From an uncultured Actinomycetes bacterium (GTDB taxonomy: Bacteria; Actinomycetota; Actinomycetes; Nanopelagicales; Nanopelagicaceae), in assembly GCA_903898555.1 (NCBI GenBank), contig CAIUFY010000064.1, positions 1-51,528 of the forward strand: 51,528 nt of DNA, read 5' to 3'. Positions 7,482 through 51,528 of the stretch are shown here, piece after piece. A model generated the notes under the pieces. It had not been told where the DNA came from and did not search any database. It was given only the letters and a program-made list of their open reading frames with translations. A program made the position numbers and the translations under genes. Every line of letters starts with the position of its first letter. Positions within the stretch are counted from its first letter, which is position 1.

Positions 7482-7490
7482 GGAATTCAA

Positions 7491-9576: not shown

Positions 9577-9605
9577 CTGAACATTTGGCGACAAAGTCCC
9601 AAATT

Positions 9606-9680
9606 CGTGTGTAATTCTTTAGAAAAATAGACCAATCTGGACTTGACGCGGAGGGGGTTACACGCGTGTAATTCTCCTTA
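9606..9680 (+). promoter_or_regulatory. Imperfect direct repeat in the whiB leader/promoter region
   Basis: CGTGTGTAATTCTTTAGAA begins at 9606 and CGCGTGTAATTCTCCTTAAGAA begins at 9663. They share GTGTAATTCT (9609-9618 and 9666-9675), 57 bp apart, within the 173-bp untranslated region upstream of whiB. Confidence 0.3.
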
Positions 9681-9749
9681 AGAAGCCCGGGGGTAACCTG
9701 CGGGGCCGCTAGCGTGAAAGCCAATCTAGCCATAACTAGGAGTTTGTTT

Positions 9750-10046
9750 ATGACAGAACGCAAGAGCGACCTTTCCTCAGTTGCGACCTCTTTTTCGACC
9801 TTCCCAGCAGCATCAGATGGTGGCGTAGAACTTTCTTGGCAGGAGCGCGCATTGTGTGCGCAAACCGATCCAGAAGCATTCTTCCCTGAAAAAGGCGGCT
9901 CAACCCGCGAGGCAAAGAGAGTCTGTCTTTCTTGCGACGTCCGTGGAGAATGCCTTGAATACGCTCTTGGACACGATGAGCGCTTTGGTATTTGGGGTGG
10001 TCTTTCTGAGCGTGAACGTCGTCGTTTAAAGCGCCGATCAGCTTAA
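9750..10046 (+). CDS. whiB: WhiB-family (WhiB2/WhmD-type) Fe-S transcription factor
   Basis: WQERALCAQTDPEAFFPEKGGSTREAKRVCLSCDVRGECLEYAL...GIWGGLSERERRRLKRR contains four Cys, the GIWGG turn and a basic tail. AGGAG lies upstream of ATG 9750. Confidence 0.9.
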   Translation: MTERKSDLSSVATSFSTFPAASDGGVELSWQERALCAQTDPEAFFPEKGGSTREAKRVCLSCDVRGECLEYALGHDERFGIWGGLSERERRRLKRRSA

Positions 10047-10053
10047 TAACTGG

Positions 10054-10073
10054 AGCCTTGACGGCTCTTTCTA
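10054..10073 (+). terminator. Weak hairpin plus T-tract after whiB
   Basis: GAGCC-ttgac-GGCTC followed by TTTCT, 8 nt after the whiB stop. The stem is only 5 bp. Confidence 0.3.
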
Positions 10074-10085
10074 TAGGCTCGTTGA

Positions 10086-13000: not shown

Positions 13001-13160
13001 CTTTACGATTGCACATGCAGGGCGTGTAACAGTTCTTCATGATGGGACGCTTCACCGCACACTCTTGTCACTTCAACTCATCATTGTTCTGGCTGTCACG
13101 GTCTTGGCGCTGCCTGCTGGTAGGCGCCGACGCGAAGTCCCGATAGAAGAGTTGGTCTAG
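10086..13160 (+). CDS. Family-2 glycosyltransferase fused to a large polytopic membrane domain
   Basis: The N-terminal GT-A domain reads VTAVIVTHDG...VDTGSLDNS...WLIHDDVAPD...AASIIRRSVYEELGGLD...FRDDVDLGWR. More than ten hydrophobic segments follow, then a C-terminal extracytoplasmic region and a terminal TM. 1024 aa. Confidence 0.8.
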   Translation: MADKFFVTAVIVTHDGARWLPQVIAAIGFQSRKVERIVAVDTGSLDNSVKLIKASGIPCLVEQRDMGYGDAVEHALELTPAVDENEWIWLIHDDVAPDKDALARLLAAVEDRPQVAIAGPKLRGWYDRDHLLEVGVSIASNGARWTGLERREQDQGQHDGVREVLAVSTAASIIRRSVYEELGGLDTNLALFRDDVDLGWRAHVAGHSVIAVPDAIAYHAEASSSERRAVDVSEAFLHRPLMLDRRNAAYVLLVNSSFWALPWISLQLLSSGITRAVINLLAKLPGYAGDEIAAVALLLVNPKEIFQARRYRKKKRLLSSRIIRKFIPPRSSQLRMTIERAASTISSAIRPSEYEDSSGIAHSYSDIGVITESFDDPELVVVKEVPLWKIIGKNPQFILFFGITVISILAARNRLGELSGGALAIAPRSGLALLGQYAQSWHIVGMGSAATTPPWVPLLGLASVVTGFNLPLFITLLFTFTPVLAFYIFFRVLTRLGSSKRYALIGAGIYAFSPVLWASINQGRLGTIAIILIAPSLYFISPFTRDNERASWRRIFAISLLIGIFCAFNPVILLGWLFLQGARFTVNLYELRHHYRELGIQKLLFSPEAEPIKRRFALLVTPWLITAPWSASMILHPTQFFLEAGIPVLSGSRWSEFLANPGGAGSPPLWLISPVLLFALAAFTIDKLRTSSLMATSVIAVAIALSSFTLQGHGSSSNIWTGPIIAIATALLVPGVLLYAEEFIPKLREIPLGKRHLVTGFISVITALSLIGTPIWAISGGAQSLVRANQSQIVPAFVSALADTPARPKTIVINTINGQVMYEISRGTDVQLGGADVSVAPPREIVLAMNDLVTGSGIESAKTFGHFGIQYIFLKTLSNTSLIRIIDGSGGFTRMSSTANGIVWKVVGASPRVLFIGNDKSTQTIASTDFSAEADVPQGGMVVIAEKYDQDWRLLLDGQRVPLQHAANGLPVFTIAHAGRVTVLHDGTLHRTLLSLQLIIVLAVTVLALPAGRRRREVPIEELV

Positions 13161-13164
13161 AGCT

Positions 13165-14496
13165 ATGAAAATACGTTCGCTTTGGAAAAATTCTCGCAAT
13201 GAATTCGATGTAAGAATTCTTGGCATTAGTTCAATACTTTTAATTGCGTTCGCAATCTCATATGCAGCTCCAGTTGCGCAACAAGATCGCACAACGCAAA
13301 CTGATTTTCCTGCCACGGTTTGTCCGGCGAAATTAGGCGATGGTGCAACGACAGCGTTTCTACCAAAGTATGGAACTTCCGTGCGCCACGTTGCAAAAAA
13401 ATCAATTTCGTTCTACAGATCTAGAAGTAGTACTGAAAACATCGTTGGTAGTGCACTTCTCGTGGACAGTAATCCGGGAACAACCTTTGCTCTAAATAGT
13501 TCATCAAACGGTTTAGGAACAGTAATCTGCGAATCTGGAAATGCAGACCAATGGTTTGTAGGGTCATCTGGCGGAATCACTAGTAAAGCTCAATTAGATA
13601 TTGTGAATAGCGGCCTAAGTCCCGCATTGGTCGATATAACGCCGTATTCCTCGAAGCAGATGCTCCCTGTAGTTTCAGTCGCTGTTCCGGCAAACTCTGA
13701 CCGAGCGATTTTGGTAGACGCAATTGTGCCTGGAGATGATTCGGTTGCACTTCATGTTGTTACCCGAACAGGTCGTGTAACAAGTTACCTCTTTGATGCA
13801 CGAAAAAAGGGTTTGAAGTCCTTAGGATCAGATTTTGTTAATTCGCAAGCAATTCCTTCAAAGCATTTGGTAATCCCAGTAATCCTTCAATCCTCTAGCG
13901 GCAAGATCGCGTCAAGTATTCGGTTCCTAGTTCCAGGTAGCATCGATGCAAATATCAAACTAACGCTGAATTCAGGCGACGGTTCTTTCACTCCAGTTGG
14001 TTTTGATGGATTGGTTGTTCCACACGGAAAGGTTCTTGACTTACCTCTGACCTCATTGACCTCCTCGACTCCTATGTCGATTAGTGTTGATTCTGATCAA
14101 CCGCTTGTTTCTTCGGCGTTGACCCAATTTGCGGGTAATGACTTTGCCTGGTCGGCCGCGGTATCGCCATTCACGACAGTTTCACTCAATTTCACCGGGC
14201 TTAATCCTAAGTTTGTCTTCACTGGCACCGATATAAAGGTTCAAGTCAGCTGGAAAAGCTCCACTGGAAAGGGTTACAGCGCTCGCATAAGTGGGAGCGA
14301 TATCGCCTTTTGGAATCCAGATCGCGCAGGCGTTAAAACAATTTCCTTTGTAAACCTTTCCAAAAAGTCGGTTTACGGGGGAGTAATAATTAGAAATACT
14401 TCCGGCGCCAAGATTGGGTATCTGCCACTCTCTGCGGGTGCAAGTTTGGAAAAATCTTCACTTCCATTGGTCGACGTTCGAAGTCTTTCGCGCTGA
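13165..14496 (+). CDS. N-terminally anchored secreted protein, DUF5719-like
   Basis: There is a single N-terminal TM (ILGISSILLIAFAISYAAPV) and a Ser/Thr/Val-rich beta-type sequence. The position between the large GT2 gene and the DUF3499 gene matches the conserved actinobacterial arrangement. The family call rests on context and composition. Confidence 0.55.
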   Translation: MKIRSLWKNSRNEFDVRILGISSILLIAFAISYAAPVAQQDRTTQTDFPATVCPAKLGDGATTAFLPKYGTSVRHVAKKSISFYRSRSSTENIVGSALLVDSNPGTTFALNSSSNGLGTVICESGNADQWFVGSSGGITSKAQLDIVNSGLSPALVDITPYSSKQMLPVVSVAVPANSDRAILVDAIVPGDDSVALHVVTRTGRVTSYLFDARKKGLKSLGSDFVNSQAIPSKHLVIPVILQSSSGKIASSIRFLVPGSIDANIKLTLNSGDGSFTPVGFDGLVVPHGKVLDLPLTSLTSSTPMSISVDSDQPLVSSALTQFAGNDFAWSAAVSPFTTVSLNFTGLNPKFVFTGTDIKVQVSWKSSTGKGYSARISGSDIAFWNPDRAGVKTISFVNLSKKSVYGGVIIRNTSGAKIGYLPLSAGASLEKSSLPLVDVRSLSR

Positions 14497-36918: not shown

Positions 36919-38678
36919 GAAGAGATATCCAAGCGTTGCGAGGTTTTTCAATACTTGTAGTGCTTCTTTACCACGCCCAGTTTGGCTGGTTGCGAGGCGG
37001 TTTTCTCGGCGTTGATATCTTTTTTGTGATTTCAGGATTTGTGATTACCTCCAAGCTGATGGAAGGTGAAGGAACTTTCGGCAAGCAAATCAAGGAATTT
37101 TACATTCGACGAGCAAAACGTATTTTGCCGGCCAGTCTCACAGTCACACTCCTTACATCAATCTTTGCAATTTTGTTCTTGCCTGCGATATCTCGAAGCA
37201 GGTTCTCCTTGGAGGCGCTTTCTTCTGCTCTATTTTCGGCGAATCTCAATTTTGCCCGTGTTGGAAATGACTACCTTAATCAGTCACTTGATCCATCCCC
37301 TTTTCTGCATTATTGGTCACTTGGCGTTGAAGAGCAGTTTTATTTGCTCTGGCCAGTGCTTTTTCTTTTAATTTATCGAAAAAAGCGCGCCCTTTTACTT
37401 CCGACCCTTCTCCTAACCGCGGCTTTTGGAATTTGGTATACCTCCATCAACCCAGTTAGTTCTTTCTATCTGCCTTTCTCTAGATTTTGGGAGTTCTTTG
37501 CTGGCATTATTTTGGCAATGAATCCACAGTTATATCTTTCTGCGCGCTTTCGTAAACTTGGCGCTCTTGTGGGTTGGGGAATTATCACTTTCTCCGTATT
37601 CTGGGTCAGCGTAAATGACGCCACTCCTGGCTTTAAGACCGTGATTGCAATCGTTGGAGCAATGGTGGTTTTGCTTTCCCGCGTGGAGGTTAAACCTCAA
37701 TTCGTACTGCCTTGGCTCGGGGACTACTCTTTCTCGCTTTATTTAGTGCATTGGCCGGTAGTTGTTTTCTTTTTGGATAGAAATAGCAGACTAAGCGGAA
37801 TAAACAAGATGGAAATCATCGCTTTATCGCTACTCCTCTCGCTGGCACTTACTCGTTTTGTGGAAAAGCCATTCAGATATCGGAAGAATTTATCTCTATC
37901 ACTTCCAAAGTGGGGAGTTGTGATCCTTGTTGGAAGTTTCTTGAGCTATGGAGCTCTCGCCGCAAGTGCGACGTCATCTGTTAAGTTCGATAAATCCGTT
38001 CCAGCAACGTATTCAAATGGATGTCATCTGAATTTTGGGGTGGCCTGGCCGACAAAGCCATGCATATTTGGTGATTCGACTAGTTCCAAGGAAATTATTC
38101 TCGCAGGAGATTCTCACGCGGCTCAATGGTTTCCGGCACTTGAGAAGATTGCAATAAGTCGCCACTTGAAATTAGTTAATCTGACAAAGTCTTCATGCCC
38201 AGCCACAATTCTTGAAACTACAAGAAACGGAAAATTCGATTCATCTTGTGCGATTTTTCAAATTAAATTGGTAACAAGAATTAATCTAGATAAACCCGAG
38301 TTTGTCTTTTTCTCAGATTTTACGGAGTATCAGTACCCACTTCGCAAACAAATTGGAAGTTACGAAAAATCTTGGACTTCAGGTCTCTCGACATTCCTTA
38401 ATCAAATTTCAGCACCTGTTATTTTCTTAGGTGATACGCCAAAGCCAACAAGTGCTATGAAGAGCTTCTCTGTTGCTAGATCAGCCACAACTTTGGCAAC
38501 TCGCGCACTTATAAAGAAGCTTGGAATCGCGTATATCGATACATCGTCTTGGCTCTGCAAAACAACCTGTTCCTCAACGTTTATGGGCGTGAATACATAC
38601 CGGGATGCTTCTCATATCAGCGTTTCTACCGCTGATAATTTGGTGAAAACTCTCGAAGCGGCGGTTCCATTTCCATGA
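36915..38678 (+). CDS. Acyltransferase-3 (OafA-like) membrane O-acyltransferase with C-terminal SGNH-like domain
   Basis: MRRDIQALRGFSILVVLLYHA and HYWSLGVEEQFYLLWP are AT3 motifs. About 10 TM segments, then a roughly 230-aa extracytoplasmic domain (ILAGDSHAAQW). ATGA overlaps at both ends. Confidence 0.85.
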   Translation: MRRDIQALRGFSILVVLLYHAQFGWLRGGFLGVDIFFVISGFVITSKLMEGEGTFGKQIKEFYIRRAKRILPASLTVTLLTSIFAILFLPAISRSRFSLEALSSALFSANLNFARVGNDYLNQSLDPSPFLHYWSLGVEEQFYLLWPVLFLLIYRKKRALLLPTLLLTAAFGIWYTSINPVSSFYLPFSRFWEFFAGIILAMNPQLYLSARFRKLGALVGWGIITFSVFWVSVNDATPGFKTVIAIVGAMVVLLSRVEVKPQFVLPWLGDYSFSLYLVHWPVVVFFLDRNSRLSGINKMEIIALSLLLSLALTRFVEKPFRYRKNLSLSLPKWGVVILVGSFLSYGALAASATSSVKFDKSVPATYSNGCHLNFGVAWPTKPCIFGDSTSSKEIILAGDSHAAQWFPALEKIAISRHLKLVNLTKSSCPATILETTRNGKFDSSCAIFQIKLVTRINLDKPEFVFFSDFTEYQYPLRKQIGSYEKSWTSGLSTFLNQISAPVIFLGDTPKPTSAMKSFSVARSATTLATRALIKKLGIAYIDTSSWLCKTTCSSTFMGVNTYRDASHISVSTADNLVKTLEAAVPFP

Positions 38679-39826
38679 CTTCACAAAATAATTTTGATGC
38701 AATCGTCATTGGCGCAGGAATAGTGGGAGCAACGACTTCCTTGGCGCTGACAAAAGCGGGTCTTCGAGTCTTGGTGCTTGATCGCGGCCCTGTCGCTGGA
38801 GGCACAACCGGAGCGGGTGAAGGAAATATTCTCGTCTCAGATAAAGAGCCTGGGCCTGAATTGGAATTGGCTCTCATGTCTCGAGATTTATGGTTTGAAC
38901 TCGGTGATGATGTTGGGGATTCTTTCGAGTTAGAAGCAAAAGGTGGAGTTGTTGTATCTCGAGGCGACGACACTGCTCTACGCGATTTTGCGAAAAGACA
39001 GCAATCTGCAGGTGTTAATGCCCAGTTAGTTGACGGTAACGAACTAAGGAAGCTTGAGCCGCATTTAGCCCCAGGAATGAATTCTGGAGCCTTCTATCCC
39101 CAGGATTCGCAGTGCCAGCCAATGCTTGCCGCTGCTCAGATTCTAAAGCGAGTGCGCGAACGCGGTGGGATTGTTAAAACCGGGACAATGGTGACTAAGT
39201 TTGTGATTGTTTCGAATCGAGTCAAGGGTGTTGAAACTTCCGAAGGCATATTTAACGCCCCAACCATTGTGAATGCAGCAGGAACATGGGCAGGGGAGAT
39301 ATCAAAACTTGCTGGCTCATTCCTGCCGATTGCACCCAGAAAAGGTTTTATTTTAGTAACAGCTCCTATGCCACAAATAATCAACCACAAAGTTTATGAT
39401 TCAGATTATGTTGCGAACGTTGCAAGCGGTGAAGCCGATCTTCAGACATCTACTGTCGTTGAGGGCACTCGATCTGGAACTATTTTGATAGGCGCAAGCC
39501 GCGAGAGGGTCGGATTCGACGGAAGTATGAACATCGATGTTCTCCGCCGCCTAGCTGCGCAAGCAACATCTCTCTTTCCAATACTTCGAGATGTGCAACT
39601 TCTGCGGGCTTATCGCGGATTTAGACCTTACGCGCCGGACCATCTTCCTGTCATCGGTGAAGATTCCCTTATTGCAGGACTCTGGCATTCTGCTGGACAT
39701 GAGGGTGCTGGCATAGGTTTAGCACCGGGAAGTGCCCGTCTGCTTACCGAGCAAATTACAGGCAGATCCTCATTCATGGATGCTTCTCCATTTTCACCGC
39801 GTCGTTTTCAAGGCGGTTCTGCATGA
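38675..39826 (+). CDS. FAD-dependent DAO-family oxidoreductase (beta-like subunit of a heteromeric D-hydroxyproline/opine-type dehydrogenase)
   Basis: FDAIVIGAGIVGATTSLALTKAGLRVLVLDRG Rossmann motif, and GHEGAGIGLAPGS near the C-terminus. HcnC/LhpB/SoxB-like. The function is inferred from the operon. Confidence 0.75.
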   Translation: MTSQNNFDAIVIGAGIVGATTSLALTKAGLRVLVLDRGPVAGGTTGAGEGNILVSDKEPGPELELALMSRDLWFELGDDVGDSFELEAKGGVVVSRGDDTALRDFAKRQQSAGVNAQLVDGNELRKLEPHLAPGMNSGAFYPQDSQCQPMLAAAQILKRVRERGGIVKTGTMVTKFVIVSNRVKGVETSEGIFNAPTIVNAAGTWAGEISKLAGSFLPIAPRKGFILVTAPMPQIINHKVYDSDYVANVASGEADLQTSTVVEGTRSGTILIGASRERVGFDGSMNIDVLRRLAAQATSLFPILRDVQLLRAYRGFRPYAPDHLPVIGEDSLIAGLWHSAGHEGAGIGLAPGSARLLTEQITGRSSFMDASPFSPRRFQGGSA

Positions 39827-40077
39827 AGCGTCCAGAAAAGTCTTTAGCTTTTACATTTAATGGAGTACGAATCGAAGCGATTGAAGGGCAAACAATTGCC
39901 GCCGCTCTCCTTGCCTCCGAGATAAACGTTTTAAGAAAAACGCGATTAAAGAATGAACCAAGATCTATCTTTTGCGGAATTGGAATTTGCTGGGATTGCG
40001 TTGTCACGGTGAATGGTGTTACAAACCAGCGCTCATGTCTCATTGAGGTTGTCGAAGGAATGGTTGTGAGCTCATGA
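39823..40077 (+). CDS. Small (2Fe-2S)-binding subunit (HcnA/SoxA N-terminal type)
   Basis: 84 aa. FTFNGVRIEAIEGQTIAAALL...FCGIGICWDCVVTVNG...SCL. ATGA overlaps on both sides. Confidence 0.75.
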   Translation: MKRPEKSLAFTFNGVRIEAIEGQTIAAALLASEINVLRKTRLKNEPRSIFCGIGICWDCVVTVNGVTNQRSCLIEVVEGMVVSS

Positions 40078-41378
40078 TTGCAATCGTTGGAGCCGGGCCT
40101 GCCGGACTTTCTGCCGCTGTTGCCGCAGCAAAGCTCGGCCAACAAGTTATTTTGATTGATTCCTCCCCCCGGCTAGGTGGTCAGTACTGGCGCCACTTAC
40201 CCAGCAATTGGGGAGTAGGAAGACCGCCATATTTTGCAAAAGCCCAAGAACTCTTCGATGAAGTCTTATCTAATCCGCTGATTACGCGTTTCTCCAACGC
40301 ACATGTCTGGCAAGCCGAGAAGAAGGCCGAGCAATTCAACCTTTACGTTGTACGAAATGGTGTCGAGGAAATCGTTAAAGCCGAGAAAGTTATTTTGGCG
40401 ACTGGCGCATACGACCGCGCCCTTCCATTTCCTGGGTGGGATTTGCCTGGAGTTATGACGGCTGGCGCAGCACAATCAATGCTGAAGTCCCATGGCGTTC
40501 TTGTTGGAAAGAAGTTTGTTATTGCAGGAACGGGGCCATTTCTGTTGCCAGTAGCTACGGGACTCGCGGCGGCTGGGGCCGAAGTTGTTGGTTTATACGA
40601 GGCCAATAATCCGCTTCGATGGATTTTGAATCTACACGGTTTGATTTTGAATCCATCAAAAATTCGAGAAGGTATATATTTCTTGAAGAAACTTCGTAGT
40701 CTGGGAATAAAAGTTCATTACGGAAAAGAAATTCAATCCGCCGTTTCTGATGGAGTACTTGTTGATGGCAAAAAAATTGAATGTGACACCGTAGCAATTG
40801 GATCTGGATTTGTTCCCGAGCTTTCTCTCGCAGGGATTCTTGGCGCAAAATTGAAAGTGGGAGCAGATGGAACTGTTGTCGTAGATGTTGATCAAAACCA
40901 GCAGACAAGCATCCCTGGACTTTATGCAGCGGGGGAGTCGACTGGAATCGGTGGTTCATCCCTTGCAGTGCTAGAAGGAGAAATCGCTGGTTCAACGAGA
41001 AAAGGGAAAAGACTTGCTCGTTGGAGAGCACAAGTTTTTGCGACGGGACTACAACGCGTGTATCCCGTTTCAAATAAATGGCAGTCCGCCTTAACTCCCC
41101 AAACAATTCTTTGCCGGTGTGAAGAAGTTTCACTCGCCGATATTCATGGGGCAATTGATGAACTTGGTGCGCAAGACGGTCGTTCAGCAAAGCTCTTTAC
41201 TCGAGCCGGGATGGGGCTTTGCCAAGGCCGAGTCTGCGGGCGAAATGTAAGTGAAATTGTGGCCTGTCACTTGTCCCGCGATCTCACTGCTGAGGAGCGA
41301 ATTAACACGGCACAGCGCCCATTAGCTGCCCCCATCTCATTAGGTGAACTGGGCGATGGATTAGAGAAGAACTTCTAG
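40074..41378 (+). CDS. FAD/NAD(P)-binding oxidoreductase subunit with BFD-like [2Fe-2S] domain (HcnB/OoxA/LhpF-like)
   Basis: IAIVGAGPAGLSAAVAAAKLG, a second fold FVIAGTGPFLLPVA, GLYAAGE, and a C-terminal CRCEEV...GLCQGRVCG motif. Confidence 0.75.
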   Translation: MIAIVGAGPAGLSAAVAAAKLGQQVILIDSSPRLGGQYWRHLPSNWGVGRPPYFAKAQELFDEVLSNPLITRFSNAHVWQAEKKAEQFNLYVVRNGVEEIVKAEKVILATGAYDRALPFPGWDLPGVMTAGAAQSMLKSHGVLVGKKFVIAGTGPFLLPVATGLAAAGAEVVGLYEANNPLRWILNLHGLILNPSKIREGIYFLKKLRSLGIKVHYGKEIQSAVSDGVLVDGKKIECDTVAIGSGFVPELSLAGILGAKLKVGADGTVVVDVDQNQQTSIPGLYAAGESTGIGGSSLAVLEGEIAGSTRKGKRLARWRAQVFATGLQRVYPVSNKWQSALTPQTILCRCEEVSLADIHGAIDELGAQDGRSAKLFTRAGMGLCQGRVCGRNVSEIVACHLSRDLTAEERINTAQRPLAAPISLGELGDGLEKNF

Positions 41379-41391
41379 TTATTGTTTGGGA

Positions 41392-42294
41392 ATGACAAAC
41401 TCGGGAAATAATCCATGGAACGGCATCCTTACAGCCACAGCAACACCATTCAAGAGTGATCTTTCTATTGATTACGATAAATATGCAGAACATGTGCAAT
41501 GGCTAGCTGCAAATGGCACACATGGCGTTATTCCAAACGGTTCACTCGGTGAGTACCAAGTTCTTACGGCTGAAGAACGCGCTCGTATGGTCGAAGTTGC
41601 TGTTGCTGCTGCACCTAAAGGATTCCACGTTGTCCCAGGAGTAGGCGCATATGGTGCAGGAGAGTCTGTTCGTTGGACTGAGCAAGCGGCGGAAAATGGT
41701 GCTGCTGCGGTTATGTTGCTTCCACCAAATGCTTATCGTGCAAATGACGATGAAGTTGTTGCTCACTACAAAGAGGTCGCAAAAGTAGGAATTCCAATTA
41801 TTGCCTACAACAATCCATTCGACACAAAAGTTGATTTAACACCCGCCCTCGTTGGTCGAATTGCCAATGAAGTTCCTGGAGTAGTTGCAATCAAGGAATT
41901 TTCTGGCGACGTCCGTCGAATCTGGCAGATTAAGAAATCTGCTCCACGAATCGATGTGATTGTTGGAGCTGATGATGTTCTTCTCGAACTTTCAACAGCG
42001 GGAATTAGCGGATGGATTGCAGGATTTCCGAATGCACTTCCAGCTGAATCAGCAGCGCTTTATAACGCTGCAATTGCCGGAGATTACAAAACTGCTGCAC
42101 CGATGTATGCAGCCCTGCACGATCTCTTCCATTGGGATTCGCAGAAGGAATTTATTCAAGCAATTAAGTTAGCTATGGATTTATTAGGACGTTACGGCGG
42201 ACCAACACGTTTGCCTCGCTTGCCTCTTCCTGCTGCTGACCAAGAAAAGATAAAGCGTGAAGTTGCAGCAGTGAAGGAATACTTCGGCAAATGA
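41392..42294 (+). CDS. DapA/DHDPS-family lyase, probably pyrroline-4-hydroxy-2-carboxylate deaminase
   Basis: GILTATATPF...GTHGVIPNGSLGEY...YNNP...VAIKEFSG (Schiff-base Lys context). The function is inferred from hydroxyproline-operon context. Start reassigned to ATG 41392. Confidence 0.7.
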   Translation: MTNSGNNPWNGILTATATPFKSDLSIDYDKYAEHVQWLAANGTHGVIPNGSLGEYQVLTAEERARMVEVAVAAAPKGFHVVPGVGAYGAGESVRWTEQAAENGAAAVMLLPPNAYRANDDEVVAHYKEVAKVGIPIIAYNNPFDTKVDLTPALVGRIANEVPGVVAIKEFSGDVRRIWQIKKSAPRIDVIVGADDVLLELSTAGISGWIAGFPNALPAESAALYNAAIAGDYKTAAPMYAALHDLFHWDSQKEFIQAIKLAMDLLGRYGGPTRLPRLPLPAADQEKIKREVAAVKEYFGK

Positions 42295-43295
42295 TTGATA
42301 GCTTGCGGACCGTCACCACAGTTGAGACTCACACAGAAGGCATGCCAACGCGTGTTGTGACCTCTGGTGTTGGTGACATCCCTGGCAAAACGATGTTCGA
42401 AAAGCGCCTGTATTTCATGAAGAATTTGGATTACCTACGCGAATGGTTGATGTTTGAACCTCGAGGTCATAGCGCAATGAGTGGTGCGATACTTCAAAAG
42501 CCGACCCGTCCCGATGCTGATTGGGGAGTTGTCTACATTGAGGTTTCAGGGTGTCTTCCAATGTGTGGGCACGGAACAATTGGTGTTGCCACAGCGTTAG
42601 TTGAAAAGAAAATGGTGGAGGTCGTTGAGCCAATAACGACAATTCGCTTGGATACGCCGGCAGGGTTAGTTGTCGTAGATGTAAAAGTTAAGGATGGCAA
42701 GGCTGAGAATGTCACCATTATTAACGTTCCTTCATTTTCCTATGCTCTAGATCAAGTAGTTAATGTTCCGGGTCTCGGGGAATTGAAATATGACATGGCC
42801 TATGGTGGAAATTTCTACGCAATCGTCCCAATCGAACGAGTCGGTATTGAATTTAAACGCGAGAATGGTCAAAAACTTCTTGACCTTGGCCTGCTAATTT
42901 GTGATGCAATAAATGAACAAAATCGGCCGGTACATCCAGAAAATCCAGATATTGCCATCTGTCACCATATTGATTTCATCGCACCTGGTGGTAATTCACT
43001 TCATTGGAAGAATGCGATGGCTATTCATCCAGGTTGGTTCGATCGTTCGCCATGTGGAACAGGAACAAGTGCGCGCCTTGCTCAGATGGTTGCTCGTGGT
43101 GAATTTAAAGAGGGTGATGTACTCATAAATGAGTCGTGGATTGGATCGCACTTTGAAGGAAGAATTGCAGAGCGGACAAAAGTTGGAAATTTCGATGCAG
43201 TCATTCCACTAATCACAGGGCGTGCCTGGGTTATGGGCGAAGCAACGTGGCTATTGGATCCAACAGATCCATTTCCAAATGGATTTATTGTTTAG
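42291..43295 (+). CDS. Proline racemase-family enzyme, Cys/Cys type (4-hydroxyproline 2-epimerase)
   Basis: EPRGHSAMSGA. The first catalytic Cys is in LPMCGHGTIG and the second in DRSPCGTGTSAR. Having both Cys argues for an epimerase or racemase rather than a dehydratase subtype. Confidence 0.85.
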   Translation: MIDSLRTVTTVETHTEGMPTRVVTSGVGDIPGKTMFEKRLYFMKNLDYLREWLMFEPRGHSAMSGAILQKPTRPDADWGVVYIEVSGCLPMCGHGTIGVATALVEKKMVEVVEPITTIRLDTPAGLVVVDVKVKDGKAENVTIINVPSFSYALDQVVNVPGLGELKYDMAYGGNFYAIVPIERVGIEFKRENGQKLLDLGLLICDAINEQNRPVHPENPDIAICHHIDFIAPGGNSLHWKNAMAIHPGWFDRSPCGTGTSARLAQMVARGEFKEGDVLINESWIGSHFEGRIAERTKVGNFDAVIPLITGRAWVMGEATWLLDPTDPFPNGFIV

Positions 43296-44781
43296 TACGA
43301 ATTCCATTTACTAATCTCTCCAAGCTCAATGGATTTGAGTCCTTGAGTCCATCTGGAAGAAAAGCGTCAGGCATTCCTTGATATGAAACCGGGCGCATAA
43401 AGCGATAAATCGCATCTGTTCCGACCGAAGTTGTATGCGAGGAAGAGGAAGGCCACTGTCCGCCATGTTGCATCGCAGCAGTGACAGAAACTCCAGTAGG
43501 GAATGCGTTCCAAATTACACGACCAGCTTTTTCGGCGAGAATCGCTAGAAGCCCTTTCACATCATCATTTTCAGTTCCATGAATAGTCGCAGTGAGCTGA
43601 CCTTCAAGGGAAGAAGCTATCTCTTCAAATTTCGATTCTTCAGCGATAGCAATCACTGAAGTCGGCCCGAAATGTTCTTCAAGAAGCTCTGGATTCGCCG
43701 CGACGGTCTGCCATTCGGCGATGAAGAAGGTCGGCGTGACTGCCAATCCCGCATCCGCGGTGTTAGCGCTTATTGCCTTTACTGACCCCAACTTAGTTAG
43801 CGTTGAGATTGTTGACGAATAACGATCTGCAATTCCTTTATTGAGCAGCGGGCCAACGGTCAGAGTGCTTAGATATTTTTCTACCTCTGCCAAGAATACT
43901 TCTGCGTGAGATTTAGGAACAACAAAGAATCCAGGTTTCGTGCAGAACTGGCCAGACCCCATAAGGGCAGAATCAATTGCACCCTTAACAAGCGCTTCAT
44001 TTCGCTCGGCTATTGCAGATGGTGTGACAAATACAGGATTAATTGCGCCCATCTCTGCAAAGACTGGAATAGGCACTTCGCGTTTAGCTGTCAGTTCCAT
44101 AAGCAACTTACCAACTGCGCCAGAACCAGTGAACCCTACGGCTGTAATTTTTGGATGCTCAGCAAGCCAATGGGTTATCTGAGGATCATTTCCTTCGACA
44201 AGTGAGAAAAGTTCCTTCGGCTGGCCCGAATCTGCAATTCCCTTTTGAATGGCGGCAAAAACTGCTCTTGAGGTGTTTGGGTGAGAAGGGTGCGCCTTTA
44301 GAACAACGGCGCAACCGGCAGCAAGCGCACTTGCAGAGTCTCCACCAGCGGTCGAGAAAGCCAGTGGAAAGTTGCTTGCAGCAAAAATAGCTACCACTCG
44401 GAGCGGCTGATTTATTTTGCGAATATCAGGGCGTGGTCCCATTCCGTAAGCAGGATCGGCGCGATCAATCTTTGGATCCAAGAAGGCGCCTGAAGCGACT
44501 AATTCTGCGAATGTATTGATTTGAAAAACTGTGCGAGTGAGTTCGCCGTTAATGCGAGCCTCTGGAAGGCCAGATTCTTGCATTGCGAGGGGGACAATCT
44601 TCGCCCGGTCAGATTCGATTGCCAATGAGATATTTCGCAGTAATTGAGCGCGCTCGGCTGGCGAGAGCAGGGGAGCGTTGGCTGCTTCAATTGCGGCGGC
44701 AACTTCAGATTGTGAAGCGTTCTGGATCTCTGGTCCGAATTCTTCGGCCGTATGAGGGTTAACTGCGCGAAAAGATGTCAT
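43285..44781 (-). CDS. NAD(P)+ aldehyde dehydrogenase, probably alpha-ketoglutarate semialdehyde dehydrogenase
   Basis: ALDH superfamily: FTGSGAVG, the catalytic-Glu context FAEMGAINP, and the catalytic-Cys context SGQFCTKPG. Convergent with the epimerase gene, overlapping it by 11 nt. The substrate is inferred from context. Confidence 0.75.
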   Translation of the reverse strand: MTSFRAVNPHTAEEFGPEIQNASQSEVAAAIEAANAPLLSPAERAQLLRNISLAIESDRAKIVPLAMQESGLPEARINGELTRTVFQINTFAELVASGAFLDPKIDRADPAYGMGPRPDIRKINQPLRVVAIFAASNFPLAFSTAGGDSASALAAGCAVVLKAHPSHPNTSRAVFAAIQKGIADSGQPKELFSLVEGNDPQITHWLAEHPKITAVGFTGSGAVGKLLMELTAKREVPIPVFAEMGAINPVFVTPSAIAERNEALVKGAIDSALMGSGQFCTKPGFFVVPKSHAEVFLAEVEKYLSTLTVGPLLNKGIADRYSSTISTLTKLGSVKAISANTADAGLAVTPTFFIAEWQTVAANPELLEEHFGPTSVIAIAEESKFEEIASSLEGQLTATIHGTENDDVKGLLAILAEKAGRVIWNAFPTGVSVTAAMQHGGQWPSSSSHTTSVGTDAIYRFMRPVSYQGMPDAFLPDGLKDSNPLSLERLVNGIRTKQ

Positions 44782-44798: not shown

Positions 44799-45374
44799 TC
44801 AGCCAGAGGTACTGGTTGCAGTCCTTACGTTGGCACGCGTAACAGTTACGGATATTGCATCGGAGATATTTCTATTGCCAGGGGCTCCAGCCGTGGTGGA
44901 GTGATATTGGCACTGGACTGAAATCGTGGCTAGCGGCGCCAAAGTAAAGGTCACTGCCGCTGAATTCGTTGAGGCGTTTGTATTTGTCAGCATATTTGTA
45001 AGAACTCCGGTGTTGCAGGTTCCAGTAGCACTCCACGTTCCTGCCACCGTACCACTCACCCGGCAGTAATTAAGAAGAACGGTGTATGCATTTGTACCAC
45101 TTGTCGTTGTGGTTGTCTGTCCTAAAGTGAAGGAAAGAGTTTGTAAAGTGCCCGTATTGGTAATTGTGAAGTAAGAACCTTTTGCAGCCGCCGTATCTCG
45201 AATAACCGGATTAACGGTGGTGACTGAGGGAACAACTTTCCAGGAACCTGAGCCGATCAACTGTGGAATTGAATTAGTTGCCGTGCCAACATTTGTTGCA
45301 TTAGCAAAAGCAAGGCCGAAGCAGTTGAGTATTACGACTACAACTGCTGCGGCCTTCTTTGTTCTCTTCGACAT
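44799..45374 (-). CDS. Secreted Thr/Ser/Asn-rich protein, divergent paralogue of the upstream TasA-like protein
   Basis: Signal peptide MSKRTKKAAAVVVVILNCFGLAFA|NAT. The mature N-terminus TATNSIPQLIGSGSW parallels ATNVTPQVIQSGTL of the upstream protein. There is a Cys-X17-Cys pair (YCRVSG...GTCNTG). No LPXTG motif and no C-terminal anchor. Confidence 0.6.
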   Translation of the reverse strand: MSKRTKKAAAVVVVILNCFGLAFANATNVGTATNSIPQLIGSGSWKVVPSVTTVNPVIRDTAAAKGSYFTITNTGTLQTLSFTLGQTTTTTSGTNAYTVLLNYCRVSGTVAGTWSATGTCNTGVLTNMLTNTNASTNSAAVTFTLAPLATISVQCQYHSTTAGAPGNRNISDAISVTVTRANVRTATSTSG

Positions 45375-45388
45375 GGCTACTTAACTAA

Positions 45389-46078
45389 TTAGCCGTTCGT
45401 TACTGAGGCATTGCGTTGGGTTGTACGAATCTTCCAGTTAATGCTTGCAGAAAGTCCCTGAATAGTTCCGCCAGGTAGCGTTCCATTTGTCACTGTTTCA
45501 GCAATAGATGCTGGAAGAGTGAGTGTGAATTTCAAGTAGGTAGTCGTAGAAGCTGGCACAGTGCCTGTAAACAATGTGAGTTCAACTCCTCCACCTGTTG
45601 TTGTATTCATTGTGGAAAGCGCTGTGTTTGACGCTGTGGTCGCTGTAGTTGTGCCTGAACAGGTTCCTGCAGGCATTGCCCATGCTACGGAACACTGAGT
45701 GACACTTACCGTTAATCCTTTTGATGCGCTGGTTGTCAGCAGCGTTGAGGCAGTCGCGGTGTCGTTAATAGACAAGTAGAAATTCTGCGCAGGCATTGTT
45801 CCGGTTGTCACACCAACGGCAAAGTTCAGCGTATCTCCGGGTGCCATTGCTGAAACGGTCGAAGTAAAACCACTAGATCCAGCATTCGCTGCGGTAATCA
45901 ACGACAACGTTCCTGACTGAATAACCTGAGGCGTTACATTTGTCGCAACGGCATCTAAGTTTGCGGAAGCAGCAGTAGACGCCACTGTGATTCCAACGGT
46001 GCCAACTACGGCGACAATTGTAATTTGCGCAACCGTTCTGGCGAAAAGATTCGTTGAGGTCATGAGGGACTTAAGCAT
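45389..46078 (-). CDS. Secreted TasA/camelysin-like protein (candidate fibre subunit)
   Basis: The signal peptide ends TAASA|NL. Three motifs align with B. subtilis TasA: VIQSGTLSLITAAN (TasA TFASGTLDLSAKEN), MAPGDTLNF (LKPGDKLTK) and TIQGLSASINWKIRTTQRN (KYQGNSIKLQFSFEATQWN). There is a Cys-X13-Cys pair. The start is taken at ATG 46078, which overlaps the peptidase stop (ATGCTTAA); ATG 46099 and ATG 46063 are also possible. Confidence 0.65.
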   Translation of the reverse strand: MLKSLMTSTNLFARTVAQITIVAVVGTVGITVASTAASANLDAVATNVTPQVIQSGTLSLITAANAGSSGFTSTVSAMAPGDTLNFAVGVTTGTMPAQNFYLSINDTATASTLLTTSASKGLTVSVTQCSVAWAMPAGTCSGTTTATTASNTALSTMNTTTGGGVELTLFTGTVPASTTTYLKFTLTLPASIAETVTNGTLPGGTIQGLSASINWKIRTTQRNASVTNG

Positions 46079-46736
46079 TTTCTCTCTTTTCTGCTTCATA
46101 TAGGTGGGGGGAAGTGATGGCTTCTTTGTGCTTCTTATCTTCTTTGCGGCGCTTTACGAGGATATTTGACACGATGATTACGTTGAAGATCACAAGGACG
46201 AAGAGTCCAATGAGTTTTCCACGCGTAGAACTAAGAGCACTTACGACATAACCAAGATTTGGGATTGTCTTGACTACCTTTCGAACCGGGGAGTTAAGCC
46301 CAATATCAACTGGCTTATCAGCAACAGGGTTGCTATCTCCCTTTGTTGTAATGGTTAGGGCAGTGGTTGTGGTGCTAAGTGATTGAATTCTGTGTGATTG
46401 GAGCGTCCAGTTCTCTGGATTAACTAGCATTACAACGTCATTTGGTTGCAAAGTGGAAGCTGTGACAACCTTTGCAACAATCATGTCGCCTGGGTTAATC
46501 GTGGGGCGCATGCTTCCGGTCGTAACGGTATGAATTGATATCCCAAAGTAAGAGGACATAACTGCCGGCCCAACAAGTGCAACCGATACGCTGATCACGA
46601 AAGCAATGTTTAAGACTCTTGCCCATCGTTGACGAGCTAGCGTTCCGTTGTCGCGTCTATCTGCAATCGTTCCTACGCGCTGACGGCGTTCAACGAACTC
46701 GTTTGTCGCAGCGTCTATAGGACGTTGATTTTTCAT
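46071..46736 (-). CDS. Signal peptidase I, archaeal/ER (SipW) type
   Basis: TTGSMRPTINPGD (nucleophile Ser box), LQSHRI (His box of Ser/His-type S26 peptidases), TKGDSNPVAD (GDN box). An N-terminal TM plus a C-terminal TM with a basic tail, as in SipW. Confidence 0.8.
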   Translation of the reverse strand: MKNQRPIDAATNEFVERRQRVGTIADRRDNGTLARQRWARVLNIAFVISVSVALVGPAVMSSYFGISIHTVTTGSMRPTINPGDMIVAKVVTASTLQPNDVVMLVNPENWTLQSHRIQSLSTTTTALTITTKGDSNPVADKPVDIGLNSPVRKVVKTIPNLGYVVSALSSTRGKLIGLFVLVIFNVIIVSNILVKRRKEDKKHKEAITSPHLYEAEKRENA

Positions 46737-46781: not shown

Positions 46782-46796
46782 GGGGGCAATCCCCCC
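46782..46796 (-). other. Short GC hairpin between the regulator gene and the peptidase gene
   Basis: GGGGG-caat-CCCCC(C) on the + strand, which reads GGGGGG-auug-CCCCC on the transcript. No U-tract follows. Confidence 0.3.
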
Positions 46797-46825: not shown

Positions 46826-47497
46826 TTAAATGAAGGACATCGCGCGCAGATACTTCATCGCAGCTGTCACTCGACGATTTGTAAGCTCTGACGCTGGTTC
46901 TACATCGAGCAAACTAGACGCAGCTGCGATTGTTCGCTCAACTGCTTTTGCTGAAATCCCACACGCTTTGCCAATTGCAGCGTTGCTCATGCCAGCTGCC
47001 ATCAGACGCATAACTCGGTGTTGTTGTGGGGAAAGCAGACCTTGGTAGTTTGCTTCAGTTAGAGCTTCTTCAAGCAAAGATGAGTCCAATTGAGCTTTTC
47101 CTTGATAGGCAGCTTCTAACTCAGCTAAGACAAGCTGAGGTGATCGGGTTGGCTTATTTAACCAATAGCAATTGTTAAAGAGAGCAGCAACCAGACCTTC
47201 CTTTGTTAATACAGGATTTTCCCGCTCAGACATAAACACAACGGGAATAGTTGGAAATGTCTTTCGTAACTCGAGTGCGGAAACGAGTGCATCGGTCCGA
47301 CGCAAAGAGTCCATATCAATCAAGATGAGATCGGCCTCAAACTTTGTTGCCTTTTCAAGGTAATTATCCGTCGCAACAACCATCGCGCTTACTTCAAATC
47401 CCGGCGCGGTTTCAAAACCCTTTGCAATGAATGAACCCATTCCAGCGCGGAACTGGTTCTCTAGGATCAGGATCTTCTTAAGCATTTTCTTATCCAT
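46826..47497 (-). CDS. Orphan NarL/LuxR-family response regulator with degenerate acidic pocket
   Basis: Receiver: KILILENQ (the DD pair replaced by EN), DLILIDMD (Asp retained), VVFMS, YWLNKP (Lys retained). C-terminal LuxR HTH: LSPQQHRVMRLMAAGMSNAAIGKACGISAKAVERTI. Start at ATG 47497 or ATG 47485. Confidence 0.8.
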   Translation of the reverse strand: MDKKMLKKILILENQFRAGMGSFIAKGFETAPGFEVSAMVVATDNYLEKATKFEADLILIDMDSLRRTDALVSALELRKTFPTIPVVFMSERENPVLTKEGLVAALFNNCYWLNKPTRSPQLVLAELEAAYQGKAQLDSSLLEEALTEANYQGLLSPQQHRVMRLMAAGMSNAAIGKACGISAKAVERTIAAASSLLDVEPASELTNRRVTAAMKYLRAMSFI

Positions 47498-47507
47498 CCT
47501 CTCGTTC

Positions 47508-48182
47508 TCACGCTTCCTTTCTATCATTCCTCGAAAGTCTTAGGTATTCAAGGACCACGAGCATTCTGAGGCTCTTTTCGTTGGAATGTGGCTCAATACC
47601 AAGCGCTTTAGCTATGAGAGAGATATGACGTTCAATGGCTTTTATCGAGAGATCGCACCTTCCGGCAATTGCCTTATTGCTAAGGCCATCGGCAAGGTAT
47701 TGGACAATTGTTAGCTGGACAGAGTTGAGCCCTCCAAAGGAATCTTCAAGCCCCTGCAAATCCTGCATGATGTCGTCTGGCAGCGAGACGCTGCCCCTAA
47801 TGGCGCTTCCTACACTTTCAAGGAAGGTGTCACCGTTATCAACACTTGGATTGAGCCAATAAGCCGAACTTGCAATAGGAGTTAACCGATTAGCAAAACT
47901 AAATTGTGGCAAATTTTTTCTCGCCGTGAGAATAAACGGTAGAAGTGGCGCAATTTGGCGCAAGTTATTTCGAATGTCCAGAGCATGACTTGGCTTCACC
48001 GAATCAATATCAATAATTATTGCGCCAGGCCAAATCAAGCGGTACGCCTGGATAGCATCATCTTCAGGTGCAAATTTTAAATACTGCCTACTTCTTACAT
48101 CCGGTGCGTATGTCGCGATTAAGCCATCGATATACGTCGGTGAAATTGGGTTGGCAATAACAAGCAATAAATTATTCTCCAT
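47508..48182 (-). CDS. Orphan LuxR-family regulator with pseudo-receiver domain
   Basis: Receiver-like: LLLVIANP (no acidic pair), AIIIDID, FILTA, YWLNPS (conserved Lys missing). LuxR HTH: LNSVQLTIVQYLADGLSNKAIAGRCDLSIKAIERHI. GGAGGG lies 4 nt upstream of ATG 48182. It is a paralogue of the downstream gene. Confidence 0.75.
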   Translation of the reverse strand: MENNLLLVIANPISPTYIDGLIATYAPDVRSRQYLKFAPEDDAIQAYRLIWPGAIIIDIDSVKPSHALDIRNNLRQIAPLLPFILTARKNLPQFSFANRLTPIASSAYWLNPSVDNGDTFLESVGSAIRGSVSLPDDIMQDLQGLEDSFGGLNSVQLTIVQYLADGLSNKAIAGRCDLSIKAIERHISLIAKALGIEPHSNEKSLRMLVVLEYLRLSRNDRKEA

Positions 48183-48258: not shown

Positions 48259-48273
48259 GGGGGTGTATCCCCC
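48259..48273 (-). other. Short GC hairpin after the EAL gene
   Basis: GGGGG-tgtat-CCCCC, 12 nt downstream of the stop at 48286. A second G5 run at 48247-48251 allows alternative pairing. There is no clean U-tract. Confidence 0.3.
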
Positions 48274-50565: not shown

Positions 50566-51096
50566 CTACGCGATCTCGACCGATCGCAAACTCCAGTTCC
50601 ATGCATCTAGGTTAGTGAACCATTTACTCGAAGTATTGAATACGAGGCGGATAGGGCCACCTGCGTCCATAGGAATTGGAGCGTTGTTCAGAGAAACGGC
50701 AAGCAAGGCTTGGTTATTGAAAAAATCCTTTGCAGTGGCTTTAAATGCATAATCATTTAGGGCCACGGTATTCAATGAAGCGTTTTGAGCAATTTTCAAT
50801 GAGTCGAAAAGACTCTTGAAATTCACGACTCCAAATGTCTGCTTGGCCTTTACGAATGGCTCCTGAATTGTGATTTGAGACGTTCCAAGATCTCTCAACT
50901 GTTTCATGGTGAAGTTTATGGTGCTGGCGCCTTTAATAGTTAGAACTATGTCGCTATCAGCAGGGGGAGAAACCTTAAAACCACTTCCGTAAGGGTTCTT
51001 GGATGCGGTTGGAGTTGGTGATGCTTTTGGTTGAGCAGCACCCCCGCACGCAGATAAGAGAAGCACAGCAAGCAACACAGGGATTATTCGTTTCAT
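50566..51096 (-). CDS. Lipoprotein with sulfite-oxidase/YedY-like (molybdopterin-domain-like) sequence pattern, no Moco cysteine
   Basis: Lipobox LLLSAC|GG. LTIKGAS..TINFTMKQLRDLG...FGVVNFKSLF...ALLAVSLNNAPIPMDAGGPIRLVF follows the Oxidored_molyb pattern, but the Moco-binding Cys position is not conserved. ATG 51096 lies 4 nt after the upstream TGA and is preceded by GAGGAA. Confidence 0.55.
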   Translation of the reverse strand: MKRIIPVLLAVLLLSACGGAAQPKASPTPTASKNPYGSGFKVSPPADSDIVLTIKGASTINFTMKQLRDLGTSQITIQEPFVKAKQTFGVVNFKSLFDSLKIAQNASLNTVALNDYAFKATAKDFFNNQALLAVSLNNAPIPMDAGGPIRLVFNTSSKWFTNLDAWNWSLRSVEIA

Positions 51097-51100
51097 CTTG

Positions 51101-51528
51101 TCAGCTTTCCTCTTCATTGTTTAGATAGAGAATACTTGCAAATTTCTCCAAGTATTCTCCGTATTGCTTGGCATATTCGGCAGGAAGAATTGTAGGAATT
51201 CCAATTTCGGCTGAGAGCGAAAGAGCGGCTCTATCAGCTAGGACTGGCTCATCGCTTCTGTCCCAATCAATTGAAGAAGAAGATCGAATCAAAAACGTTG
51301 GTCGTAGCTCTTCGATGAGCTGGACTTCAAATGGTTTATCAAAGAGGCTTCCAAGAGCGATTGTGGCGTTGCCATGCCCAATAATTTCTCTTGCGATGGG
51401 AGTTCCATCAAGAGTTCGAGAATCAAGATTAACTACGCTCACCACTTTAAATTTCTTGCTTACAAGCTCAGTGATTGAATCAACAAGAGACAAGGTGTTT
51501 GCTCGATCAGAGCGGCTTGTTGCTGCTA
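51101..51528 (-). CDS. Hypothetical protein (5' end outside window)
   Basis: The frame is open to the window edge, upstream of TTG 51493. The tail is acidic (LNNEEES). I recognise no family. It is tightly linked to the lipoprotein gene. Confidence 0.45.
   Translation of the reverse strand, partial: AATSRSDRANTLSLVDSITELVSKKFKVVSVVNLDSRTLDGTPIAREIIGHGNATIALGSLFDKPFEVQLIEELRPTFLIRSSSSIDWDRSDEPVLADRAALSLSAEIGIPTILPAEYAKQYGEYLEKFASILYLNNEEES

Follow-up and report, generated by a model that had tools for sequence, protein, structure and literature searches.

To our knowledge, TasA fibers have been studied by experiment only in Bacillota, with distant relatives in Archaea. The tapA-sipW-tasA operon of Bacillus subtilis (PDB 8aur for the TasA fiber and 5of1 for the monomer) places a signal peptidase of the endoplasmic reticulum (ER)/archaeal type, with two transmembrane anchors, beside its substrates. 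The donor strand of TasA is formed by the first 11 residues of the mature protein (28–38), in which F29 and I32, together with F39, make hydrophobic contacts. The C-terminal tail constitutes a second interface, and the N-terminus of TapA resembles a donor strand and is thought to give the first strand of the fiber (PMC9674648, PMC10151520). By use of PF12389 across GTDB, TasA homologs were readily identifiable in Firmicutes, Actinobacteriota, Chloroflexota, Fusobacteriota, and Patescibacteria (Wang et al. 2022, PMC9245690). According to a 2026 preprint, Bacillota and Actinomycetota share a central TasA cluster, and genes of the TasA superfamily are frequently found in linkage with a signal peptidase I as well as with minor or tip components (10.64898/2026.01.04.697558). 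We analyzed a stretch of 51,528 nucleotides (nt), hereafter the window, from an uncultured bacterium of the Nanopelagicaceae (Actinomycetes; assembly GCA_903898555.1, contig CAIUFY010000064.1). It carries adjacent genes for a signal peptidase and for two secreted proteins of 229 and 191 amino acids (aa). We consider it fairly probable that this trio is a module for the production of a TasA-type extracellular fiber.

The locus resembles the B. subtilis operon in its ER/archaeal-type peptidase with two anchors beside the putative substrates, in its jelly-roll protein, presumably Sec-exported, with SGTL-x-L, PGD, and QG...Q motifs, and in the presence of an accessory secreted protein in the same cassette. 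It differs in the gene order, which is peptidase-major-accessory, and in the accessory protein itself, which is a shortened TasA paralog and not an Ig-like protein such as TapA. The neighboring regulators also differ, as they are LuxR-type proteins and enzymes of cyclic di-GMP (c-di-GMP) metabolism. In B. cereus, the sipW-tasA/calY locus, described in part in a preprint (bioRxiv 10.64898/2026.02.22.707290), similarly combines a SipW-type peptidase with two TasA paralogs and lacks TapA. There, CalY1 and CalY2 are full-length camelysins of the size of TasA, whereas the second protein of the window is ~40 residues shorter. It also lacks the block with the highest conservation and is a member of a distinct family for which there is no model. 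The archaeal filaments (AbpA bundling pili, AbpX, Tafi, and cannulae) are also made of jelly-roll proteins, and theirs assemble by a donor strand, as we propose for the locus described here. In the AbpX and Tafi loci, minor or tip components are likewise encoded together with a signal peptidase of the TIGR02228 type (10.64898/2026.01.04.697558). These systems are far more distant from the window, where neither a DUF5305 accessory protein nor a peptidase with 10 transmembrane segments is found.

Considering these two surveys and the designation of several actinobacterial proteins as "TasA family" by NCBI, a specialist would hardly be surprised by a TasA cassette in an actinobacterium. The first-pass annotation of this DNA, which was made from the sequence alone, regarded such a system as unexpected. 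This goes too far, as homologs had already been reported (PMC9245690), but its remark that no example has been characterized stands: within the literature searched, we found no experimental study of an actinobacterial TasA homolog. Three points are modestly new: a freshwater clade has drifted below the thresholds of the family models, a constant downstream partner derived from TasA has no model, and the freshwater clade, whose genome is very small, couples the trio to genes of the c-di-GMP and LuxR types.

The 229-aa protein and the TasA family

The three open reading frames (ORFs) are located at the coordinates given in the first-pass annotation and are tightly packed and co-oriented on the minus strand. 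That annotation had also pointed out that the peptidase stop overlaps the start of the next gene and that 14 nt separate the genes of the 229-aa and 191-aa proteins. The overlap, ATGCTTAA, involves an ATG at 46078. The gene callers' start gives a longer protein of 236 aa (45389–46099). We prefer the start at 46078 because its methionine is kept in all close homologs, because the extension upstream is variable or missing, and because the purine-rich AAGAGAGAAA precedes it. Homologs ranging from 99% to ~40% identity and a conserved synteny indicate that the three genes are real.

Both secreted proteins are rich in Thr, Ala, and Ser (22%, 13%, and 10% in the 229-aa protein; 20%, 12%, and 9% in the 191-aa protein), and neither has an LPXTG motif or a C-terminal hydrophobic segment, as had been noticed previously. 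Two other compositional features were proposed at that time. N-x-S/T sequons are indeed present (five and three), and we rejected them as a distinctive feature, as their numbers are close to those predicted from a composition of 20% Thr and 6–8% Asn (estimated expectation ~4.1 and ~4.6). A Cys-X13-17-Cys pair exists in the 191-aa protein (C104-X15-C120, plus a third, nonconserved C155) and not in the 229-aa protein, where the spacing is shorter (C129-X10-C140).

The 229-aa protein starts with a predicted signal peptide (residues 1–39) cut at ASA|NLDAVATN, with ASA|N at positions 37–40, and contains no further hydrophobic segment. Downstream of this site, the three motifs that frame TasA were located as announced: VIQSGTLSLITAAN at residue 52, APGDTLNF at 79, and IQGLSASINWKIRTTQRN at 206. 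The TasA counterparts quoted in that annotation agree with the PDB sequence of TasA in the hidden Markov model (HMM) alignment.

A search of Pfam and NCBIfam with the 229-aa protein, from either start, gave no match even at E ≤ 1; PF12389 and NF046066 thus both fail on the protein itself. As these direct scans were empty for both secreted proteins, the family was assigned by way of homologs. The database search retrieved 152 homologs of the 229-aa protein, most of them with PF12389 (Peptidase_M73/camelysin). For several of these, in Arthrobacter, Micrococcaceae, and Acidimicrobiales, NCBI uses the names "TasA family" or "CalY family." Among 47 aligned homologs, 28 match PF12389 (best 5e-14) and 18 match NF046066, "biofilm matrix protein TasA" (best 1.5e-9). 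The HMM test suggested by the first-pass annotation was therefore negative for the protein itself and positive through its relatives. The NCBI-named proteins of Arthrobacter bambusae, Micrococcaceae, and Acidimicrobiales metagenome-assembled genomes (MAGs) are 38–48% identical to the window protein and are encoded in the same three-gene cassette. Unlike the proteins of the freshwater clade of low GC content, which have diverged below the thresholds, they pass PF12389.

Compared with PDB sequences, the profile of the major family ranks TasA best (5of1 and 8aur), with a marginal E of 0.035–0.04, and the alignment pairs the SGTL(S/D)L, PGD, and C-terminal QG...Q motifs. The AlphaFold2 model is an all-beta sandwich (predicted local distance difference test, pLDDT, 76.9; predicted template modeling score, pTM, 0.70). 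In a Foldseek search with this model, the TasA fiber subunit 8aur_A came first and was the sole match at E ≤ 1e-3 (3.6e-4, probability 1.00, template modeling [TM] score 0.46), in line with the jelly-roll expected beforehand. Weak matches to generic jelly-rolls were also obtained, and the archaeal entry 7ueg appeared at rank 36 (E 0.09). On the basis of the HMM matches of its homologs, the profile comparison, and the predicted fold, the 229-aa protein is a divergent member of the TasA/camelysin superfamily. Its identity with B. subtilis TasA in the structural alignment is ~10%.

The short paralog, the peptidase, and the conservation of the trio

The 191-aa protein has few close relatives, nine by a word-based search. 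A profile search among 1.84 billion representatives extended this family to 89 clusters at E ≤ 1e-3, nearly all of 160–200 aa. The 51 members that we aligned gave no meaningful match in Pfam and NCBIfam, nor did the profiles of the family among PDB sequences. By hhalign, the short family is connected to the major family at 96.5%, and at 98.4% with a deeper alignment (E 8.8e-15 over 148 columns), and the HMMs of the two families cross-match reciprocally. The second protein is therefore a shorter and distant paralog of the first, as previously proposed. In the joint alignment, both share an A-x-A site, N-terminal segments that are equally long up to an S/T-G-x-W/L motif, and a C-terminal R-x-A-T-x-T-N/S-G tail. 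They also have in common an invariant Cys...Trp...Gly-x-Cys element, in which they differ from the B. subtilis system. The distance from the A-x-A site to the S/T-G motif is 15 residues in the major and short proteins alike, in the window as in two related loci (L007 and L015). The LPxxxETxxNGxxPxxTIQG block, where conservation of the major protein is highest, is missing from the short paralog. The AlphaFold2 model of the short paralog is also a jelly-roll (pLDDT 71.6).

The first-pass annotation placed the cleavage site of the 191-aa protein at AFA|N. In the short family, A26 is invariant and A24 nearly so, whereas A22 is not conserved. A cut at ANA|T (A24-N-A26|T27), in register with A37-S-A39|N40 of the major protein, is therefore likelier, and the alignment indicates that the short paralog is probably processed there. 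Models of the TIGR04087–04090 type (TapA or SipW-cognate signal), a kind of model suggested by the first-pass annotation, found none of the window proteins at E ≤ 1 and none of the 47 major and 51 short family members at E ≤ 0.01.

The peptidase passes TIGR02228, the archaeal/ER-type model, with 58.3 bits for a cutoff of 51.85. It stays below the cutoffs of the bacterial LepB model TIGR02227 (28.5 for 47) and, slightly, of Pfam Peptidase_S26 (21.0 for 22.9). GSMRPT is found at residue 74, SHRI at 114, and KGDSNPVAD at 132, and hydrophobic segments are predicted by Kyte-Doolittle windows at ~41–66, ahead of the catalytic domain, and at ~173–195, at the C-terminus. The motifs and the two anchors are thus located as the first-pass annotation had indicated. 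In an alignment with nine homologs from related loci, S75, M76, P78, H115, R116, G133, D134, N136, and D140 are invariant. According to the invariant S75, H115, D134, and D140, the catalytic set was assigned to the Ser/His/Asp type of ER/archaeal enzymes, which confirms the class proposed earlier; a housekeeping LepB-type enzyme, the outcome that would have contradicted it, is not what the models indicate. The NF046067 equivalog model of SipW gave 64 bits for a cutoff of 190. Judging from these scores, the peptidase is SipW-like in type, topology, and context and is not a SipW orthologue. In the earlier interpretation as a whole, the homology is thus borne out, the equivalence to SipW is not, and fiber formation is a matter of inference.

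In the assembly collection, 97 sample blocks contain near-identical short paralogs; these lie on contigs from lake metagenomes (series GROS21) with the same gene order. Contigs carrying the locus reach 1.30 and 1.56 Mb. A scan of GTDB with a single protein located it on two MAG contigs. We examined eight further loci. Five have a GC content of 45–48% (L007, L013, L014, L015, and L017), and their major proteins are 42–71% identical to that of the window. The three others come from Arthrobacter bambusae (L010, 64% GC), an assembly labeled Burkholderia sp. RS01 (L016, 66% GC), and an Acidimicrobiales MAG (L012, 74% GC). All eight encode an S26-type peptidase (169–231 aa), followed by a TasA-family protein and by a protein of 173–200 aa that matches the short-family HMM (E 4e-63 to 5e-15). 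As the trio is complete in 8/8 loci, we consider it a conserved actinobacterial module of which the short paralog is the constant partner.

In the window, as in the eight loci, the peptidase gene directly precedes the TasA-family gene, with a start/stop overlap in several of them. This arrangement bears on the alternative that the enzyme is the general signal peptidase of the cell and its position incidental. No second signal peptidase is encoded in the 51.5-kb window, as would be expected in that case. Nevertheless, the enzyme is not of the LepB type, it adjoins the TasA-family gene across distant Actinomycetota, and the word-based search retrieved 11 homologs only, unlike for a universal housekeeping enzyme. 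We regard this alternative as highly improbable. The peptidase would rather be dedicated to the two secreted proteins encoded next to it, as suggested by gene order and enzyme class.

Outside Actinomycetota (named records) and unassigned metagenome contigs, the trio was seen only in the Burkholderia-labeled assembly (GCA_039748055.1, JBDLAK010000007.1). Proteobacteria are nearly completely devoid of TasA homologs (Wang et al. 2022, PMC9245690), and contamination, mislabeling, or horizontal transfer are possible. In A. bambusae, the trio adjoins a phage-type integrase, a 130-aa ORF, and a Trypsin_2 protease (3137–3841, 7339–12531), and a 1031-aa protein with CarboxypepD_reg/SpaA-like Ig repeats is encoded nearby. 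The Arthrobacter module may be carried by a mobile island together with other surface proteins.

Proposed fiber assembly and alternative readings

We propose that both proteins would be exported by Sec by means of unusually long or atypical signal peptides and that the co-encoded, membrane-anchored peptidase would cut them after A-x-A; the site would be ASA|N for the 229-aa protein and, most likely, ANA|T for the 191-aa protein. The major subunit would be the jelly-roll protein of 190 residues in its mature form. Outside the cell, its residues 1 to ~11–15 (NLDAVATNVTPQVIQ) would insert as a donor strand in the beta-sandwich of the next subunit. By analogy with TasA, polymerization would thus proceed by N-terminal donor-strand exchange. 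The short paralog would be a substoichiometric accessory subunit, acting as initiator, terminator, or anchor in the role of Bacillus TapA or CalY. The N-terminal segment preceding SGTL counts 13 residues in B. subtilis TasA and 15 in the window protein. In the family alignment, L41, A43, and A45 are invariant or nearly so and are followed by SGTLSL, which aligns with SGTLDL of TasA.

Several observations weigh against a fiber module. The family models do not recognize the 229-aa protein directly, the E of 0.035 with PDB TasA is marginal, and the TM score of 0.46 with 8aur is modest. The candidate donor strand is hardly more conserved than the remainder of the protein: mean column identity is 0.63 for the first 11 mature residues (40–50) and 0.60 for the rest. 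With the model of the short paralog, Foldseek returned generic jelly-rolls (birnavirus VP2, CD40L, and carbohydrate-binding modules [CBMs]), none at E ≤ 1e-3, and TasA was outside the top 50. Both mature proteins are devoid of LPXTG and of a transmembrane anchor that would attach them to the cell. Finally, the promoter and terminator scan remained at or below the shuffle background and delimited no operon edges, and an aldehyde dehydrogenase gene (43285–44781) starts only 17 nt past the stop of the short paralog.

Part of these data would also suit jelly-rolls of the TasA superfamily that a dedicated peptidase helps to export and that stay monomeric, as surface or secreted proteins such as adhesins, a wall-associated coat, or binding proteins. 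The fold is generic, since the 191-aa protein matches viral capsid, TNF-like, and CBM structures equally and the 229-aa protein also does so weakly, and the N-terminal segment is not unusually conserved. The TasA monomer is stable and soluble (PMC9674648), and a planktonic cell with a genome of ~1.3–1.6 Mb has no obvious need for a biofilm matrix. However, all experimentally studied members of the superfamily in the literature cited form donor-strand filaments (TasA, AbpA, AbpX, cannulae, Tafi, and threads). Furthermore, the strict pairing of a major protein with a shorter paralog sharing both termini looks like a system of major and minor subunits, and the linkage to c-di-GMP genes fits a matrix or adhesion function. 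We therefore consider monomeric proteins rather unlikely and a fiber the better supported reading.

The fiber might also be a cell-attached pilus similar to the archaeal bundling pili, with the short paralog at its base or tip, involved in cell-cell or cell-particle attachment. The same homology evidence applies to such a pilus, which would suit particle attachment by a planktonic cell. The archaeal AbpA pili are TasA homologs (PMC9245690), and 7ueg is among the weak fold matches of the major protein. On the other hand, the mature proteins have no lipobox in addition to lacking the two anchoring features mentioned above, and no sortase or anchor gene lies within the trio in the eight loci. This is a variant of the fiber reading, from which sequence alone cannot separate it, and we hold it to be clearly less likely than either a matrix fiber or monomeric proteins.

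With this cassette, a compact peptidase-major-minor trio conserved across Actinomycetota is recognized, in which the minor partner represents an unannotated family derived from TasA. The cassette would also offer a minimal three-gene system for the heterologous reconstitution of a TasA-type fiber.

The upstream c-di-GMP and LuxR genes and the remainder of the window

In the freshwater clade of low GC content, the trio is preceded by genes for a GGDEF protein, an Oxidored_molyb-like lipoprotein, a GGDEF-EAL protein, and two LuxR/GerE regulators (table 1). Although identity of the major protein drops to 42% in L015 and other genes follow the trio there, this block is retained, which argues for a functional linkage. 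Among the loci examined, the linkage to GGDEF, EAL, and LuxR genes is restricted to the freshwater clade.

Table 1. Coordinates of the features of the fiber candidate locus and its upstream block in the window.
Feature	Position	Strand	Evidence
Short TasA-derived paralog, a secreted protein of 191 aa probably cleaved after residue 26 (ANA|T)	44799..45374	-	hhalign, synteny
Major TasA-family secreted protein, 229 aa (236 aa from 46099)	45389..46078	-	Homologs, profile, AlphaFold2 fold
ER/archaeal-type (SipW-type, S26B) signal peptidase I, 221 aa	46071..46736	-	TIGR02228, catalytic residues, two transmembrane anchors
G5-N4-5-C5 inverted repeat, within the 89 nt that separate the peptidase gene from the second LuxR gene	46782..46796	-	
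LuxR/GerE-type regulator 2, atypical receiver-like N-terminal domain	46826..47527	-	GerE E 1.7e-7; Response_reg below cutoff
LuxR/GerE-type regulator 1	47508..48182	-	GerE E 1.5e-6
Second inverted repeat, G5-N5-C5, right after the GGDEF-EAL stop, upstream of regulator 1	48259..48273	-	
Membrane GGDEF-EAL protein, 758 aa	48286..50562	-	EAL 6.9e-56, GGDEF 9.9e-28
Small lipoprotein-like protein (LLSAC lipobox), weak Oxidored_molyb	50566..51117	-	PF00174 27.6 bits for a cutoff of 24

The two regulators are paralogs (27% identity, E 5e-22) whose coding regions overlap by 20 nt. The helix-turn-helix domain of regulator 1 resembles those of DevR/DosR and EL222, and the best PDB relatives of regulator 2 are RcsB and VraR. 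Both have atypical receiver-like domains, with an I-D-x-D-S acidic stretch and a (C/A)-Y-W-L-N motif right before the linker. By its position, this motif may loosely recall the c-di-GMP site (W[FLM][TS]R) found in regulators of the VpsT type.

The position of the GGDEF-EAL gene is conserved in L001–L007 and L015. As its GGDEF motif is degenerate (NSDEF) and its EALIRW and DDFGTGYS motifs are intact, the product probably acts on c-di-GMP as a phosphodiesterase whose GGDEF domain would be regulatory. Its N-terminal part suggests a membrane or extracytoplasmic sensor region. The lipoprotein-like gene sits between the two c-di-GMP genes, a placement conserved in L001–L006 and L015, and its product may serve the c-di-GMP enzymes as a sensory partner outside the cytoplasm. 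The other of these enzymes, a 729-aa GGDEF protein, is truncated by the window edge (about 51101–51528).

Since the trio lies directly downstream of two LuxR regulators and of c-di-GMP turnover genes, c-di-GMP would switch the module, with the LuxR/c-di-GMP block governing its production. A more specific proposal combines this switch, as one dedicated to the fiber in streamlined freshwater Actinomycetes, with the short family as an obligatory initiator or terminator that is derived from TasA and replaces TapA in actinobacterial fibers. We put it forward as a tentative possibility only, less likely than the fiber module itself. If correct, it would provide cells considered as free-living with a regulated mode of aggregation or particle attachment. 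The trio and the c-di-GMP/LuxR genes are retained in a freshwater genome of 1.3–1.6 Mb that is found in many lake metagenomes. This retention suggests that streamlined planktonic actinobacteria keep a regulated way of making surface or matrix fibers, with a bearing on aggregation, particle attachment, and grazing or phage defense in lakes.

The motif GGGGG-N2-6-CCCCC occurs twice in the 51.5 kb, for 0.04 expected, both times in a gap between genes of the cluster. Each repeat reads GGGGGAT..CCCCCAA on the coding strand. They are kept in L007 and L009 while their flanks diverge, and the one following the GGDEF-EAL gene is partly kept in L015. These repeats may be LuxR operators or else U-less terminators, by which the cluster would be divided into three transcripts. 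A structured leader upstream of the peptidase gene was not called, as the spacer folds no better than its shuffles (z −0.84), and a scan of the window with Rfam identified no RNA family.

Downstream of the trio, the region 38675–44781 corresponds to a catabolic cluster of the hydroxyproline/proline type, encoding an aldehyde dehydrogenase, a Pro_racemase protein, a dihydrodipicolinate synthase (DHDPS)-family protein, two FAD oxidoreductases, and a small 2Fe-2S protein; an Acyl_transf_3/SGNH protein gene adjoins it. The aldehyde dehydrogenase was rejected as a member of the fiber system, as it fits this cluster and as unrelated genes take its place in L013, L015, and the other loci. At 10086–14496, a gene for a 1024-aa family-2 glycosyltransferase (GT2) precedes that of a DUF5719 protein, flanked by genes for a PF00483 NTP_transferase protein of the sugar-1-phosphate type and a phosphomannomutase (PMM). 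This region may be a surface polysaccharide locus, and no evidence was found in the analysis that links it to the fiber cassette. Besides GT2 with DUF5719 and PMM, the typical core genes of Actinomycetes present elsewhere in the window include those for S-adenosylhomocysteine (AdoHcy) hydrolase, SecA, and a pair formed by an OmpR-type response regulator and a histidine kinase. This pair is probably MtrAB-like.

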